The notes below the pieces were generated by a model. That model was not told the origin of the DNA. It worked only from the letters and a program-made list of their open reading frames with translations, and did not search any database. Positions 14,627-55,292 of a stretch of 55,340 bases of DNA are shown here, piece after piece. The position numbers were made by a program, and so were the translations under genes. The first letter of the stretch is position 1, and the number at the start of each line of letters is the position of its first letter. The stretch is taken from positions 1-55,340 of the forward strand of contig JAFQMP010000026.1 of assembly GCA_017396225.1 (NCBI GenBank), written 5' to 3'. This DNA is from Clostridia bacterium (GTDB taxonomy: Bacteria; Bacillota; Clostridia; Oscillospirales; CAG-272).

Positions 14627-14663
14627 GTTCCTAAGACCAAACCGGTCGGAAAAACATAATATA

Positions 14664-14828
14664 ATGATAGAGGCGCACATTGTGACCTCGCAAAAGCAAG
14701 GCAACCGCTGCCGTTTGAGCTTTTGTGGGAGCGCAGCGTGCCGAAGTGAGCGCGCGGCGGTCGGGTGCTTGCTGGTCTGCACGGTTCAGAGCTGTGGGAC
14801 TGTCGTCAGTATTGATGGAGAGCTATCT
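14664..14828 (+). ncRNA. Lysine riboswitch (L-box)
   Basis: gatAGAGGcGC start, GCCGAA, CTGTC...GGAG.GCTA end; P1 gatag/ctatc; upstream of dapA. Confidence 0.9.
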
Positions 14829-14873
14829 GTATATGTGCGGTAAGACGCCCTTACCTTATTATAGTACAAATAC

Positions 14874-34315: not shown

Positions 34316-35749
34316 TCAATACTTTGCAAGCTCTGCCTCAAGCAGACGATTAATAATCACGGGATTTCCCTTGCCTGCGGTTTTGCCCATGACAATACCG
34401 ACAATGGACTTCGCAGCGGCAAGCTTACCCTTCTTATAGTCAGCAACCGACTTGGGGCTTGCGGCAACTGCCTCGGCGACCAGCTTGCCAAGCAGCACCT
34501 CATCGTTAATCTGTGCAAGGCCCCTTTCCGCCACAAGTGCCTTGGGAGAGGCATCGGTCTCAAACATATCCTTGATAAGCTTCTTTGCCGTGGAGCTGTT
34601 GATAACGTCATCACCCACCAATGTAGCCAGCTCGCCAAGGTGCGCAGCACTGACAGGGCAAGCAAAGCTCTCACCCTCAATAAGGCGCATAAACTCGGAA
34701 ATGAGCAGGTTAGCAGCCAGCTTGGGGTGTGCGGTGGTGGCAGCGGCAGCCTCAAAGTAATCCGCCATCGCCTTGTCGGAGGTCAACACCTCGCCGTCGT
34801 ATGCGGTCAGACCGTATTTTTCCATATACGCCTTCTTGCGCACGTCGGGCAGCTCGGGAATCTCTGCACCAAGTGCCTTGATTGCAGCGTCCGTCAGCTC
34901 AATGGGGGGCAGGTCGGGGTCGGGGAAATAACGGTAATCGTTTGCATTCTCCTTGGAGCGCATGGTGTAGGTCTTACCCGTGGCGGGGTCGAAGCGGCGT
35001 GTTTCCTGCACAATGGCTTCGCCCGCCTCAATCGCATCAACCTGTCGCTTATACTCATACTCAATCGCCTTAACGATAAACTGGAAGGAGTTGAGGTTCT
35101 TCATCTCGGTACGGATACCGAACTTGGTTTCGCCCGCCTTGCGGACAGAGAGGTTGACGTCACAACGGAGCGAACCCTCCTGCATCTTACAGTCGGAAAC
35201 ACCGGTATAAAGGATAATGGCACGCAGCTTCTGCAAATACGCCTTTGCCTCCTCCGCAGAGCGGATATCGGGCTCGGAAACGATCTCAATCAACGGCACA
35301 CCGCAGCGGTTACAGTCAATCATCGTGCCGTGCTTTTCATCGTGCACCAGCTTGCCTGCGTCCTCCTCAATGTGAATACGCGTGATACCAATGCGCTTGC
35401 TGCCCTCCTCGGTTTCCACATCAAGCCAACCGTGCTCGCAAAGGGGCAGGTCGTACTGAGAAATCCGGTAAGCCTTGGGCAGGTCAGGATAGAAATAATT
35501 TTTTCTGTCCTGCTTGGAATAGTTCGCAATCGTGCAGTTGGTGGCAAGTCCTGCCTTAACAGCATACTCCACCACCCTTTTGTTGAGAACAGGTAGGGTG
35601 CCGGGATAACCCATGCAGACAGGGCAGCACTGGGTGTTGGGCTCTGCACCGAAGGTTGTGGGGCAGGAGCAGAAAATCTTGGTCTTGGTCTTTAATTCTA
35701 CGTGAACCTCAAGACCGATGACCATTTCATAGCCCTTGTAAAGTGTCAT
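34316..35749 (-). CDS. gatB: Asp-tRNA(Asn)/Glu-tRNA(Gln) amidotransferase subunit B
   Basis: IGLEVHVEL, RKNYFYPDLPK, HIEEDAGK, LRCDVN, YRYFPDPDL. Confidence 0.98.
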   Translation of the reverse strand: MTLYKGYEMVIGLEVHVELKTKTKIFCSCPTTFGAEPNTQCCPVCMGYPGTLPVLNKRVVEYAVKAGLATNCTIANYSKQDRKNYFYPDLPKAYRISQYDLPLCEHGWLDVETEEGSKRIGITRIHIEEDAGKLVHDEKHGTMIDCNRCGVPLIEIVSEPDIRSAEEAKAYLQKLRAIILYTGVSDCKMQEGSLRCDVNLSVRKAGETKFGIRTEMKNLNSFQFIVKAIEYEYKRQVDAIEAGEAIVQETRRFDPATGKTYTMRSKENANDYRYFPDPDLPPIELTDAAIKALGAEIPELPDVRKKAYMEKYGLTAYDGEVLTSDKAMADYFEAAAATTAHPKLAANLLISEFMRLIEGESFACPVSAAHLGELATLVGDDVINSSTAKKLIKDMFETDASPKALVAERGLAQINDEVLLGKLVAEAVAASPKSVADYKKGKLAAAKSIVGIVMGKTAGKGNPVIINRLLEAELAKY

Positions 35750-37197
35750 GCCTGTTTACCTCCCATATCATCTTCAAGTGCCGCGCCAACGCGGTAAAGC
35801 AGTGCCTCGGAGAAGGGCTTACCCATCAGCTGCAGGCCAACAGGCATACCGCCCTCGCCCACGCCGCAGGGCAGTGCAAGTGCAGGAATACCCGCAACAT
35901 TTACAGGCACACTATACGCATCACCCATATACATCTCCAAGGGATTCTGGCTCTTTTCGCCCAGCTTGTATGCCACGGTGGGCGCCACGGGCGAGAGAAT
36001 GACATCACACTGCTCAAGCACGCGGTCATAGTCGGCACGCACAAGTGCGCGCACCTGCAATGCTTTTTTATAGTAGGCATCGTAGTAGCCCGAGGAAAGG
36101 GCGAAGGTGCCCAGCATAATGCGGCGCTTCACCTCTGCACCAAAGCCCTCGGAGCGACTCTTCTTATAAAGCTCCGCAATATCGGCAAACTCCTCGGTGC
36201 GGTAGCCGTAACGCACACCGTCAAAGCGTGCAAGGTTCGAGGACGCCTCTGCGCTGGAAATAACATAATAGGCAGCAAGCGCGTGGTCAATGGCAGGCAT
36301 CGAAACCTCCATCAGCGTCGCACCCATTTTCTCATAACGCGCGGCAGCATCGAGCACTGCCTTCTTCACATCGGAAGAAATACCCTCGCCAAAAAACTCC
36401 TTCGGAATACCAATAACAATACCCTTCACGCCCTTGCCGATTTCTGCACCGAAATCGCCGTAAACGCGGTCGATTGAGGTCGCATCGCGCTTGTCGTGAC
36501 CTGCAATGGCATTCAGCACCAGCGCATTATCGCGGACGGTGTGGGTAAGCGGACCAATCTGGTCAAGAGAGGACGCAAATGCCACCAGACCGTAACGGGA
36601 AACAGTGCCGTAGGTGGGCTTCATACCAACCACACCGCAAAAGGCTGCGGGCTGACGGATAGAGCCGCCCGTGTCGGAGCCAAGCGTGTAGGCTGCCTCG
36701 TAGGCTGCAACGGCTGCGGCAGAGCCGCCCGAGCTGCCGCCGGGTACACGTGTGAGGTCAAGGGGGTTTCTCGTCTTCTTCATCGCGGAGTTTTCGGTGG
36801 TGGAGCCCATCGCAAACTCGTCCATATTCAGTTTACCGAGCATCACGAAGCCTGCATCGAAAAGGCGTTCAATCACGTGTGCATCGTAGGGTGGAATATA
36901 GCTCTCCAGCATCTTGGAGGCACAGGTCGTGGCAACGCCCTTGGTGCAGATGTTATCCTTGATGCCTGCAGGAATACCTGCGAGAGGGGAAAGCGTTTCC
37001 CCTGCGGCCAGACGGCGGTCAACGGCAATTGCCATATCCAGTGCGCGGCGCGCGTCGGTGGAGATATATGCACCCACACGGGGCTCGTTTTTCTCAATAG
37101 AGGCGATATACGCCTTGGTCAGCTCTGCAGAGGATACCTTGCGTGCGGCAAGCAATTCAGCAGCCTCGGCAAGACCTAATTTCAACAAATCACTCAT
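35746..37197 (-). CDS. gatA: Asp-tRNA(Asn)/Glu-tRNA(Gln) amidotransferase subunit A
   Basis: IKDNI, GKLNMDEFAMGS, PGGSSGGSAAAV, GSDTGGSIRQPA, EVKRRIMLGT. Confidence 0.98.
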   Translation of the reverse strand: MSDLLKLGLAEAAELLAARKVSSAELTKAYIASIEKNEPRVGAYISTDARRALDMAIAVDRRLAAGETLSPLAGIPAGIKDNICTKGVATTCASKMLESYIPPYDAHVIERLFDAGFVMLGKLNMDEFAMGSTTENSAMKKTRNPLDLTRVPGGSSGGSAAAVAAYEAAYTLGSDTGGSIRQPAAFCGVVGMKPTYGTVSRYGLVAFASSLDQIGPLTHTVRDNALVLNAIAGHDKRDATSIDRVYGDFGAEIGKGVKGIVIGIPKEFFGEGISSDVKKAVLDAAARYEKMGATLMEVSMPAIDHALAAYYVISSAEASSNLARFDGVRYGYRTEEFADIAELYKKSRSEGFGAEVKRRIMLGTFALSSGYYDAYYKKALQVRALVRADYDRVLEQCDVILSPVAPTVAYKLGEKSQNPLEMYMGDAYSVPVNVAGIPALALPCGVGEGGMPVGLQLMGKPFSEALLYRVGAALEDDMGGKQA

Positions 37198-37210: not shown

Positions 37211-39298
37211 TTATCCTTCTACGACACGGGGCACGGTAACATAGCCCTCTGCCTGCGTGGGGGCGCCCGCAAGCAGCGCCTCACGGGTAAACTCGCTCGT
37301 GGGCTCGTCCTCGCGCAGAACATTTTTCAGGGGAACAACGTAGGTTGCCTCGGCAACGCCTGTCGTATCCACCGCGGAAAGCTGGTCGGCAAAGCCGATA
37401 ATTGCACTCATATCGGTGGCAACGCGTGCCTTCTCCTCACCCGAAAGCGAGAGTCTGGCAAGGTCAGCGATGCGCTCCACGTCAATGGTAGGCGCAGCTT
37501 TTTTGCCACCCGCACTGCCGCCTGTGCCACCCTCAAGCGCCTTGCCAAGCCCCAGCACCTCAAGCTGAGTGGCATCTACAGGCGTAGGCGCATCGGTCAT
37601 CGGACAGGAAGCGTCCTTAATCTTGGGGAATGCGATAACCTCACGAAGGCTGTCTGCGCCAACCATAATCATAACGAAGCGGTCAAGACCGAAGGCAAAG
37701 CCTGCGTGGGGGGGTGTGCCGTAGCGGAAAGCACCGACCATAAAGCCGAAACGCTCCTCAATCTCCTCATTGGAGAAGCCGAGTGCCTCAAACATCACGC
37801 GCTGTACGTCGCGGTTGTGGATACGGACAGAGCCGGAACCAAGCTCGATACCGTTGAGAACAACGTCATAGGCCTGTGCACGCACGCGCGCCTTATCCGT
37901 GAGAAGATACTGCACGTCCTCGGGATAGGGCATCGTGAAGGGGTGGTGGGTCGCAACAAAGCGGTCCTCCTCCTCGGAATACTCAAACTGGGGGAAGTCG
38001 GTGACAAAGAGGAACTTATACTCGTCCTTGTGGCGGAGTCCCAGCATATCGGCAACGGTCAGGCGGAGCGCACCGAGCACCTTACGTACTGTCGCGAGCT
38101 TATCTGCCGAGAACAGAATAAAGTCACCGGGCTTTGCACCAAGACGGTCAAGCAGCGCCTTGAAGCCCTCCTCGGTGAAATATTTGGGCAGAATGGAATT
38201 GACGGTGCCGTCCGCGCGGAGCAGAATCCACGCCATACCCTTGGCACCAAAGGAAATTGCCTTTTCGGTCAGGTTTTCAATATCGGTACGGGCAAACCTC
38301 TCACCTGCGCCGGGCACGCAAATGGCGCGCACCACACCGCCCTGCTTGGTGACAGAGTTGAATACCGAGAAGGTGGAGGCAGCGGCAAGGTCGGTGACCT
38401 CAACGATAGGCAGGTCAAAGCGCAGGTCGGGCTTATCCGAGCCGTACACGTCCATTGCCTCGTGCCAGGTGATGCGTTCAAAGGGCTCCTCAATCTTGAT
38501 ACCCTTTACCTTGTAAAAGAGGTCCTTGAACATACCCTCAAGATGCTCCAGCACGTCCTCCTGCTCGACAAAGGACATCTCCATATCAACCTGAGTAAAC
38601 TCGGGCTGGCGATCAGCGCGCAAATCCTCGTCACGGAAGCAGCGTGCAATCTGGTAGTAGCGGTCAATGCCGCCCACCATCAGGAGCTGCTTGTAAATCT
38701 GGGGGGACTGGGGGAGTGCGTAGAAGCTGCCGGGGTGTACGCGAGAGGGGACAAGGTAATCGCGTGCGCCCTCGGGCGTGGATTTGCAGAGCATAGGGGT
38801 TTCCACGCAAAGGAAGCCCTCTTTAATCAGGTACTCCTCTACGGTGTGCTGAATAAACGCACGGGTTTTCAGATTGTGATACATCGAGGGTCTGCGCAAA
38901 TCAATGTAGCGGTATTTGAGGCGCAAATCCTCACGGGTCTGCTGGCTGTCCTCGGGCGAGAAGGGCAGCTGGTCACACTGGGAGAGAAGCTCCACAGCGA
39001 TGGCCTTCATTTCCACCGTGCCCGTTGCAATACGCGGATTGACGGTAGCCGCATCGCGCAGGCGAATGTCACCTGTGACCGATACAACAGACTGGTTGCG
39101 GAGACTCTCCACAACCGAGAAATCCTCTGCCGTGAGATTGGCGGCATCAAACACCACCTGCACCACGCCCTCGCGGTCGCGCAGGTCGACGAAGATAACG
39201 CCACCCATGTCGCGCTTGTTGAGCACCCAACCGGCAACGCGCTGTACCGTGCCGATGTGCGTCTCGCGCACAAGACCGCAATAAATCGTTCTTTTCAT
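37211..39298 (-). CDS. aspS: Aspartate--tRNA ligase (bacterial type) fused to a C-terminal GatC domain
   Basis: FVDLRDREG, STPEGARDY, ALPQSPQ, CFRDEDLRADRQPEFTQ, PPHAG.AFGLDR; then a Gly linker and IDVERIADLARL...NVLRED...AP...VPRV (GatC). Confidence 0.95.
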   Translation of the reverse strand: MKRTIYCGLVRETHIGTVQRVAGWVLNKRDMGGVIFVDLRDREGVVQVVFDAANLTAEDFSVVESLRNQSVVSVTGDIRLRDAATVNPRIATGTVEMKAIAVELLSQCDQLPFSPEDSQQTREDLRLKYRYIDLRRPSMYHNLKTRAFIQHTVEEYLIKEGFLCVETPMLCKSTPEGARDYLVPSRVHPGSFYALPQSPQIYKQLLMVGGIDRYYQIARCFRDEDLRADRQPEFTQVDMEMSFVEQEDVLEHLEGMFKDLFYKVKGIKIEEPFERITWHEAMDVYGSDKPDLRFDLPIVEVTDLAAASTFSVFNSVTKQGGVVRAICVPGAGERFARTDIENLTEKAISFGAKGMAWILLRADGTVNSILPKYFTEEGFKALLDRLGAKPGDFILFSADKLATVRKVLGALRLTVADMLGLRHKDEYKFLFVTDFPQFEYSEEEDRFVATHHPFTMPYPEDVQYLLTDKARVRAQAYDVVLNGIELGSGSVRIHNRDVQRVMFEALGFSNEEIEERFGFMVGAFRYGTPPHAGFAFGLDRFVMIMVGADSLREVIAFPKIKDASCPMTDAPTPVDATQLEVLGLGKALEGGTGGSAGGKKAAPTIDVERIADLARLSLSGEEKARVATDMSAIIGFADQLSAVDTTGVAEATYVVPLKNVLREDEPTSEFTREALLAGAPTQAEGYVTVPRVVEG

Positions 39299-39336: not shown

Positions 39337-39610
39337 AAAAAAATAACGCCCCTGAAAGTGTCAAGCCACTTTCGGGACGAAAGAAAATCTTCCGCGGTAC
39401 CACCCGCCTTTGAGCATACGCTCCTCACGGACACTCCTTTGAAGGAATATCCCTCGGCTGTAACGCGCCGCCGCGCCTGCGCCTACTGCCCGCTTCGGGG
39501 GTTCGAACAGGAACTCCGGAATGTTCTTTCATCGCGCACCCATACCGTCATCGCAGCACCGACGGCTCTCTGTGATAGCCCTCGCGATTACTTTTTTCCA
39601 TCATTGCTTT
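39337..39610 (-). ncRNA. T-box riboswitch with Asn (AAC) specifier
   Basis: GA motif, AGTA, AGAGAG..GGTGCTG distal motifs, specifier loop GAAAG-AAC-A (39523-39525), T-box AAGGCGGGTGGTACCGCG, terminator with U-tract. Confidence 0.92.
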
Positions 39611-39630
39611 TGAAAATATTATACACCGAT

Positions 39631-39659
39631 ATTGTAGCACTATTCCTCCGTTCTGTCAA
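39631..39659 (-). promoter_or_regulatory. Sigma-A promoter of the T-box leader
   Basis: TTGACA-17 nt-TACAAT with TGn. Confidence 0.75.
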
Positions 39660-54765: not shown

Positions 54766-54842
54766 GGCCCGGTAGTTCAGTCGGTTAGAACGCTAGCCTG
54801 TCACGCTAGAGGTCGTGGGTTCGAGTCCCATCCGGGTCGCCA
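54766..54842 (+). tRNA. tRNA-Asp(GTC)
   Basis: Cloverleaf, ctagc-ct-GTC-ac-gctag, GGTTCGA, encoded CCA. Confidence 0.97.
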
Positions 54843-54847
54843 GGTAT

Positions 54848-54923
<76 letters not shown>

Positions 54924-54925
54924 TT

Positions 54926-55001
54926 GCGGATTTAGCTCATTTGGTAGAGCGCGACCTTGCCAAGGTCGAGGTGGCGGGTTCGAGCCCCGTAATCCGCTCC
55001 A
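54926..55001 (+). tRNA. tRNA-Gly(GCC)
   Basis: cgacc-tt-GCC-aa-ggtcg, GGTTCGA, CCA. Confidence 0.97.
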
Positions 55002-55108
55002 TAGGTTTGGAGCGAGAGACGTTTTGCTCTGGAAACCTTTTATATACGCCGGTAAAAAGCAGATGGAGGCAATAGTCTTTATCAAGCTTTTTACATAGTG
55101 CGAGTCCC

Positions 55109-55184
55109 GGGGGGTTAGCTCAGCTGGGAGAGCATCTGCCTTACAAGCAGAGGGTCACAGGTTCGAGCCCTGTACCCCCCACCA
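55109..55184 (+). tRNA. tRNA-Val(TAC)
   Basis: tctgc-ct-TAC-aa-gcaga, GGTTCGA, CCA. Confidence 0.97.
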
Positions 55185-55215
55185 TTTTTTATATTGAATA
55201 AAAGTTCAACCATTT

Positions 55216-55292
55216 GGCTCGGTAGTTCAGTTGGTTAGAACGCCAGCCTGTCACGCTGGAGGTCGTGGGTTCGAGCCCCATCCGAGTCGCCA
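55216..55292 (+). tRNA. tRNA-Asp(GTC), second isodecoder
   Basis: ccagc-ct-GTC-ac-gctgg, GGTTCGA, CCA. Confidence 0.97.

Follow-up and report, generated by a model that had tools for sequence, protein, structure and literature searches.

An AspRS-GatC fusion in a T-box-led clostridial operon and its likely role in Asn-tRNA(Asn) formation

The aspS-gatC locus

The stretch of DNA considered here, 55,340 nucleotides from a Clostridia bacterium (contig JAFQMP010000026.1 of assembly GCA_017396225.1) and referred to in its entirety as the window, carries on its minus strand a gene in which a bacterial-type aspartyl-tRNA synthetase (AspRS), encoded by aspS, is joined in frame to GatC, a subunit of the tRNA-dependent amidotransferase GatCAB. 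A first-pass annotation, made from the sequence letters, had described a single frame of 695 amino acids (aa) that contains a complete AspRS along with a full GatC domain, a description that is borne out by translation as well as by Pfam and NCBIfam matches. Particularly, translation of the window from the ATG at 39298 to the TAA at 37211 encounters no internal stops. The resulting protein, here designated P0001, is present in identical form in NCBI, ENA, and nr.

Pfam recognizes an OB domain (residues 20-84), tRNA-synt_2 (123-560), GAD (313-408), and GatC (618-689), the latter at 65.9 bits against a cut-off of 23. The NCBIfam model aspS_bact (TIGR00459) scores 728 bits versus a cut-off of 374, and the gatC model TIGR00135 places residues 605-694 on positions 4-93 of its 93, i.e., at 84.7 bits versus a cut-off of 47.1. 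Catalytic motif residues of the AspRS do not vary among the 26 fused proteins aligned, and a GatC profile that includes the P0001 domain matches GatC chains of the Protein Data Bank (PDB). An AlphaFold model of the monomer (predicted local distance difference test score, pLDDT, of 72.8; predicted template modeling score, pTM, of 0.60) possesses the AspRS fold and leaves the placement of GatC relative to AspRS unfixed. GatC-like helices are predicted with modest confidence at residues 607-613, 620-642, and 672-676, and pLDDT is below 50 over segment 557-603.

The two domains are joined by a Lys-rich linker. That linker had been placed at residues 582-603, i.e., 37555-37490, and said to contain neither ATG nor stop. 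These coordinates stand, and both codons are indeed missing, but the AspRS models end at residues 582-584, such that the true linker is about residues 585-604. The linker had also been called Gly-rich, which holds within and near the genus but not across the clade of related fusions discussed below, where it is only linker length that is kept.

Genes for the remaining two amidotransferase subunits follow (Table 1), the start of gatA lying 13 bases past the fusion stop. By sequence the GatCAB set is complete, with GatA possessing the motifs of what we take to be its amidase triad (Lys80, Ser155, Ser179), GatB its catalytic and YqeY domains, and GatC being supplied as the fused domain. Upstream is a T-box riboswitch leader with the properties of an Asn-specific one, that is, a score above gathering, an AAC specifier, a UGGN bulge, and a predicted terminator, the hairpin of which was missed by a simple terminator scan. 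A GAA (Glu) triplet at 39526-39524 overlaps the AAC specifier. The promoter-like site beyond the leader is aligned in relatives.

Table 1. Features of the aspS-gatC locus, in window coordinates
Feature	Position	Strand	Basis
gatB, 477 aa; start overlaps gatA stop	34316..35749	-	TIGR00133 562 bits; GatB_N, GatB_Yqey
gatA, 483 aa; Lys80/Ser155/Ser179 motifs (presumed amidase triad) intact	35746..37197	-	TIGR00132 617 bits
aspS-gatC fusion gene, 695 aa (P0001)	37211..39298	-	translation, domain matches, fused orthologues
GatC domain (residues 605-695)	37214..37486	-	TIGR00135, profile match, predicted helices
in-frame linker, about residues 585-604, predicted to be disordered	37487..37546	-	pLDDT and conserved spacing
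bacterial-type AspRS part (OB, catalytic, GAD; residues 1-584)	37547..39298	-	Pfam and NCBIfam
predicted T-box terminator hairpin (39378-39348) and U tract	39337..39378	-	RNA fold of 39420-39325, z = -3.5
T-box riboswitch leader	39370..39613	-	Rfam RF00230, 104.4 bits versus gathering 93, full model
T-box specifier codon AAC (Asn)	39523..39525	-	alignment to Rfam specifier position
sigma-70-type promoter-like site TTGACA-17-TACAAT, upstream of T-box	39631..39659	-	11 of 12 consensus matches; consensus match only

Occurrence and origins of the fusion

The AspRS-GatC fusion is real. Of the 37 genus genomes, this one included, 11 possess fused frames of 695-699 aa, as counted from the start codon, and 24 display a GatC match, fused in those 11 and free in the other 13. 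Use of the C-terminal 111 aa as query identified 26 proteins among 1432 candidates, all 26 with both GatC and tRNA-synt_2, and a GatC profile applied to longer proteins gave 239 matches among 7996 candidates, with tRNA-synt_2 found in 118 of the 120 matches listed. At least 10 of 250 genomes of the class (genomes at least 92% complete) carry the fusion, and a curated NCBIfam family for this architecture exists; the rarity implied by the first-pass annotation was, that is, too high.

That annotation had also considered that a stop or frameshift could be hidden in the linker, for example at its A6 run (37504-37499). This was checked using assembled contigs only, rather than raw reads, of four public runs. 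Contigs of three of these, X1, X2, and X4, cross the A6 run without gaps and the linker without insertions or deletions. Run X1 may be the source of the genome, X2 comes from a different sample and carries 5 substitutions, and X4 comes from a different study and carries 11; the contigs of run X6 do not cover the linker. A separate observation is that the N-terminal ~35 residues of one fused protein, P0007, are unlike those of other members of its clade and resemble an unrelated AspRS, possibly as a consequence of chimeric assembly.

Over 10 genomes of the genus, the ratio of nonsynonymous to synonymous substitution rates (dN/dS) is 0.10 for the OB domain, 0.06 for the catalytic domain plus GAD, 0.19 for the linker, and 0.11 for GatC. 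The GatC domain, in other words, is under purifying selection. All 17 fused genes compared keep a Q578-to-L613 spacing of 34-39 aa, with linker sequence varying freely.

Fused clostridial proteins form two groups, here described as Met (M) type, which is that of P0001, and His (H) type. Among the matches listed, M type is found in Oscillospiraceae, Candidatus (Ca.) Limiplasma, and a Tissierellaceae isolate. H-type proteins bear Lachnospiraceae and Oscillospiraceae labels. In a tree based on the AspRS part alone, M type is a clade with support of 100 among Bacillota AspRSs, with 29 of its 30 rows fused and the sole 'unfused' row, L066, cut by a contig end. H type groups in the AspRS tree instead with unfused aspS-gatC-gatA-gatB operons of the same genus as P0001. 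The two types are about 42% identical and differ in the His found in the anticodon-domain motif of H type. They nevertheless are alike in architecture, in size (about 690 aa for H type, e.g., P0027 and P0114), and in tether span.

A single origin of these clostridial fusions, with the two types forced together, is rejected by the approximately unbiased (AU) test both for AspRS (p=2.7e-44; 30 rows) and for GatB (p=1.4e-7; 25 rows), and therefore fusion evolved repeatedly. The trees used were quick LG+G4 trees, unrooted, and the 30 AspRS rows were hand-picked from a 122-row set, plus four further H-type proteins, redundancy filtering of that set having cut H type from 78 to 1 and M type from 71 to 13. 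A single ancient fusion would require also that GatC was lost from all intervening housekeeping AspRSs. From AFP at the AspRS C-terminal end to RxD of GatC, both motifs, there are 103-111 residues in 66 M-type proteins and 108-113 in 78 H-type proteins, counts that include near-identical cluster members. Separate origins, that is, share a similar tether length or span.

Where the types differ further is in their partner GatA, which is intact for P0001 but short and without triad motifs for H type. The open frames of H-type operon GatA are ~300-440 aa, missing the first ~78 residues along with the Lys/Ser/Ser triad motifs, and short, triad-less GatA is seen at loci L059, L060, L061, L062, L065, L170, and L173, which are unfused, as well as at L183 and L185-L188, which are fused H type. 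Such GatA is likely glutaminase-dead, perhaps implying use of free ammonia. Beside the M-type fusion of Tissierellaceae bacterium HCP3S3_D8 (L068:7090-8424; L169) there is also a GatA lacking the Lys and GGSSGGS motifs. That isolate possesses a second, unfused, intact gatCAB, neither glutaminyl- nor asparaginyl-tRNA synthetase (GlnRS, AsnRS) was found there, and a division of labor between its two amidotransferases is possible.

The curated family just alluded to, NF009460/PRK12820 (bifunctional AspRS/GatC), presumably is from Desulfovibrio. It has the same domain order and size, its 723-position model aligning over residues 5-665 of P0001. The fusion scores 612 bits, however, thereby not reaching the curated cut-off of 1379. 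Of this score the AspRS part supplies 607, as compared with 610 for the stand-alone AspRS of the same genome, 665 and 667 for unfused Bacillota AspRSs, and a span of 580-667 for five unfused AspRSs overall. Membership in PRK12820 is rejected on score, the AspRS part being level with unfused AspRSs. As that part scores no better than do AspRSs lacking GatC, the lineage of this fusion therefore differs from PRK12820, and these hidden Markov model scores suggest that PRK12820 represents a third origin.

A putative tethered route to Asn-tRNA(Asn)

The genome, from a gut bacterium, is 1.54 Mb in 73 contigs and 88.8% complete. It possesses one gatC (the fused domain), one gatA, and one gatB. A stand-alone second AspRS is present, 48.6% identical to the fused AspRS, as are GluRS (gltX), GlnRS (glnS), a 311-aa GluRS-like protein, LysRS, and an AsnB-family gene, with the long-form, 552-aa gltX and glnS adjoining, 4 bases apart (G000:C8:19411-22729). 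Within what is assembled of this genome, neither an AsnRS over cut-off, nor AsnA, nor a match to free gatC was found. Thus, of the genes which the first-pass annotation had singled out as informative, glnS and a second aspS are present, and asnS and a free gatC were not found. Because no AsnRS and no other gatC was found but GlnRS and a second AspRS are present, the operon probably makes Asn-tRNA.

Relatives tell a similar story. AsnRS was not found in 9 of the 10 other fused genomes of the genus either, and over all 37 genomes gatC and asnS seldom co-occur (21 with only gatC, 8 with only asnS, 3 with both, and 5 with neither), these being related rather than independent and in part incomplete genomes. 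A second AspRS is retained by all 21 of the genomes with M-type fusion. Five genomes of one family (G159:C46, G132:C42, G286:C42, G101:C5, and G067:C4) carry a class IIb synthetase-like gene of 450-470 aa which scores ~205 bits on the AsnRS model, i.e., below cut-off, and which is possibly an archaeal-type AspRS. In P0001's own genome, tRNA-Asn and both tRNA-Gln begin and pair as U1-A72 and tRNA-Asp as G1-C72, the former a GatCAB determinant and the latter an antideterminant according to PMC9976931.

Of 20 M-type loci scanned, 15 have a T-box that scores above gathering, and in all 15 of these the specifier is AAC. Of the remaining five, two display the T-box core motif by alignment and one stops at a contig edge. 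Overlapping Glu and Asn codons, as GAAC, are seen in 14 of the 15 specifiers, with recognition by tRNA-Glu being putative. An extra open reading frame of about 120 aa lies between T-box and aspS-gatC in G008 (L052:319-1000), G029 (L165:3615-4501), and G020 (L167:1-1049), and a similar insertion is apparent in G018, where, however, the contig ends. The encoded protein presumably resembles DUF559-type, endonuclease-like proteins.

Positions 31 and 84 of AspRS presumably play a functional role in the anticodon-binding domain. These are Met31 and Ala84 in the fused AspRS, versus His and Gly in the non-discriminating AspRS of Pseudomonas aeruginosa (PDB 4WJ3) and Leu and Lys in the AspRS of Escherichia coli. 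Met31, which is nearly invariant in the M-type clade, together with Ala84 fits neither the one pattern nor the other, and the residues do not decide function. By context, that is, an Asn T-box, a gat operon, and no AsnRS found, the fused AspRS probably is non-discriminating.

It is likely, as judged from sequence, that the genome's only GatC, fused to this AspRS, binds GatA/GatB and in so doing tethers the amidotransferase to the synthetase for purposes of Asn-tRNA(Asn) formation. The binding is predicted because this is the only GatC found and because GatC, as a family, binds GatA and GatB. Uncharged tRNA-Asn would antiterminate the T-box, turning the operon on. The fused AspRS, as a non-discriminating paralogue, would then form Asp-tRNA(Asn), with the stand-alone AspRS serving as the housekeeping enzyme. 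GatC would wrap GatA/GatB as usual, such that the AspRS dimer, a state described in PMC9976931, would carry two GatAB units, and the complex, (AspRS-GatC)2(GatA)2(GatB)2, would be assembled prior to tRNA binding. The flexible, ~20-aa tether would hold GatB near the synthetase, and mischarged tRNA would be amidated before its release using ammonia from GatA. In the unfused Helicobacter pylori Asn-transamidosome, which is dynamic, release of Asp-tRNA(Asn) is slow until GatCAB arrives (PMC3367201). A tether would remove that wait, i.e., it would secure the slow product-release step. As Gln-tRNA is made by GlnRS in P0001's own genome, the tethered complex there probably serves Asn only, a restriction not imposed by the tether itself.

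Various observations weigh against such a tethered route. The fused AspRS lacks the His/Gly pair of the P. aeruginosa enzyme, leaving tRNA-Asn charging to rest on context. At 88.8% completeness, AsnRS and free gatC are not found rather than absent. Of the 21 genomes with M-type fusion, 9 also possess AsnRS (one of these partial), and hence the operon need not be the only route. The tether, furthermore, is dispensable, given that closely related operons work unfused, with 13 of the 24 gatC-bearing genomes of the genus having a free gatC.

The alternative that survives best, though still rather unlikely, is one of operon-level convenience. Here stop loss fused an adjacent aspS and gatC, GatC tolerates an N-terminal passenger, and what is gained is only fixed 1:1 expression or GatC stabilization, with tRNA handed over as in unfused transamidosomes. 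Fusion should be easy, given that unfused aspS-gatC-gatA-gatB operons of the same genus have gaps that range from a few bases to some tens. The linker, moreover, is of low confidence and variable sequence, its fixed length may in part reflect original intergenic spacing, and GatC appears fused as well to GatA in genome G042. No unfused member, however, is seen inside of the M-type clade (29 of 30 rows fused, with L066 truncated as noted), and linker length is held across orders at a dN/dS of 0.19, which in combination with an all-fused clade argues for retention, though not for channeling. As for G042 itself, GatC and GatA matches fall there within one 635-aa open frame (L057:2590-4497), a possible natural GatC-GatA fusion.

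More improbable is a tethered GatAB with general, Asn/Gln amidotransferase activity, one which also amidates Glu-tRNA(Gln) supplied by GluRS. Both tRNA-Gln genes do carry U1-A72. In G051 (93% complete) and in G065, GlnRS was not found and there is one gatB, the G051 gltX being of the same type as in P0001's genome, mid-contig, and without an adjacent glnS. The GAA/AAC overlap of 14 of 15 leaders on its own is weak evidence, as G commonly precedes the specifier codon in T-boxes, but it does recall the two-codon, Asn/Glu T-box of Clostridium acetobutylicum, the specifier of which has overlapping Asn and Glu codons (PMC4052509). Against this stand the GlnRS found directly downstream of gltX in P0001's own genome, GlnRS in 16 of the 21 genomes with M-type fusion (in one as a fragment at a contig end), and a second free gatCAB in 3 of the other 5. 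The first-pass annotation had proposed a biasing of GatAB toward Asn over Gln, and 19 of the 21 fused genomes, possessing GlnRS or a second free gatCAB, are in keeping with that; G051 and G065 are not, and obligate Asn-only use of the tethered GatAB is not upheld. The operon would thus serve Asn, in most cases with Gln having a route of its own, and its tether does not appear to forbid Gln-tRNA formation.

Very improbable indeed is that the gene is fused but its products separate, i.e., with GatC freed by linker cleavage or by an internal start. Such release would be aided by the linker's being Lys-rich and predicted to be disordered, and in G035, L069, and L070 an in-frame GTG is preceded by an AGGA/GGAGG-like word. 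The P0001 linker, though, has no ATG, its in-frame GTGs lack a ribosome-binding word, and in 4 of 17 fused genes the junction segment lacks ATG, GTG, and TTG altogether. A conserved internal start with a ribosome-binding word was found nowhere across the junction segments of these 17, and a conserved gatC start of this sort is rejected.

Lastly, an assembly or sequencing error that deleted a stop or shifted the frame, as a 73-contig draft and an A6 run might invite, has next to no probability and is rejected given fusion in 11 genomes of the genus as well as in other families, in-frame linker length variants, and gap-free contigs from three runs.

Comparison with known systems

The Asn-transamidosomes of P. 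aeruginosa (4WJ3) and H. pylori resemble the system proposed here in consisting of a bacterial-type, GAD-bearing AspRS, GatCAB, and tRNA-Asn. There, however, AspRS and GatC are separate chains, versus the one chain predicted here. The solved structure of the Thermotoga maritima Gln-transamidosome does have a synthetase covalently joined to GatC, as GatC-linker-GluRS2 (PDB 3AL0 chain C), but with GatC first, i.e., in the opposite order, with a class I GluRS, and for the Gln pathway. We take that chain to be artificial, the PDB entry naming a linker. A solved transamidosome thus accommodates, in that opposite order, a synthetase-GatC chain. The aspS of the C. acetobutylicum operon reportedly is archaeal-type, with gatC a separate gene. 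As here, that organism has a T-box-led, tRNA-dependent amidation operon, the one of Saad et al. from 2012 and 2013, along with extra AspRS genes (PMC4052509 and PMC4206432).

No study of a natural AspRS-GatC fusion was found in the open-access full-text literature, with subscription papers outside of that search. The architecture is already known, as a curated family, and this caps the surprise. What is added here is that fusion arose repeatedly with a similar tether span, that an anticodon-domain residue is non-canonical, that Asn-only use has exceptions, and that in the second fusion type the partner GatA is triad-less.

In its fullest form, which we advance only tentatively, the claim would be that the Asn-transamidosome has been hard-wired on three or more independent occasions (in two clostridial lineages and in PRK12820) using a same-reach tether, yielding a tRNA-independent, pre-assembled (AspRS-GatC)2(GatAB)2, with an AspRS that reads tRNA-Asn via a new, Met solution at the His/Leu position and that may be specialized for tRNA-Asn. 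That Asp-tRNA(Asn) is kept from the ribosome is explained for some bacteria by stable channeling and for others by slow release, and a hard-wired complex, if this claim is true, would be a natural, crystallizable test of channeling versus kinetics in protecting the code. The occurrence of fused and unfused forms in one genus, along with repeated origin, allows for direct fused-versus-split comparison, and a natural covalent link may yield a complex stable enough for structure work. There is a consequence for annotation as well: All 17 source names listed for fused proteins of full length designate a plain AspRS, such that gatC looks to be missing.

Elsewhere on the plus strand, the window carries a lysine riboswitch (14660-14833) and a cluster of five tRNAs, in the order Asp, Phe, Gly, Val, Asp (54766-55292).

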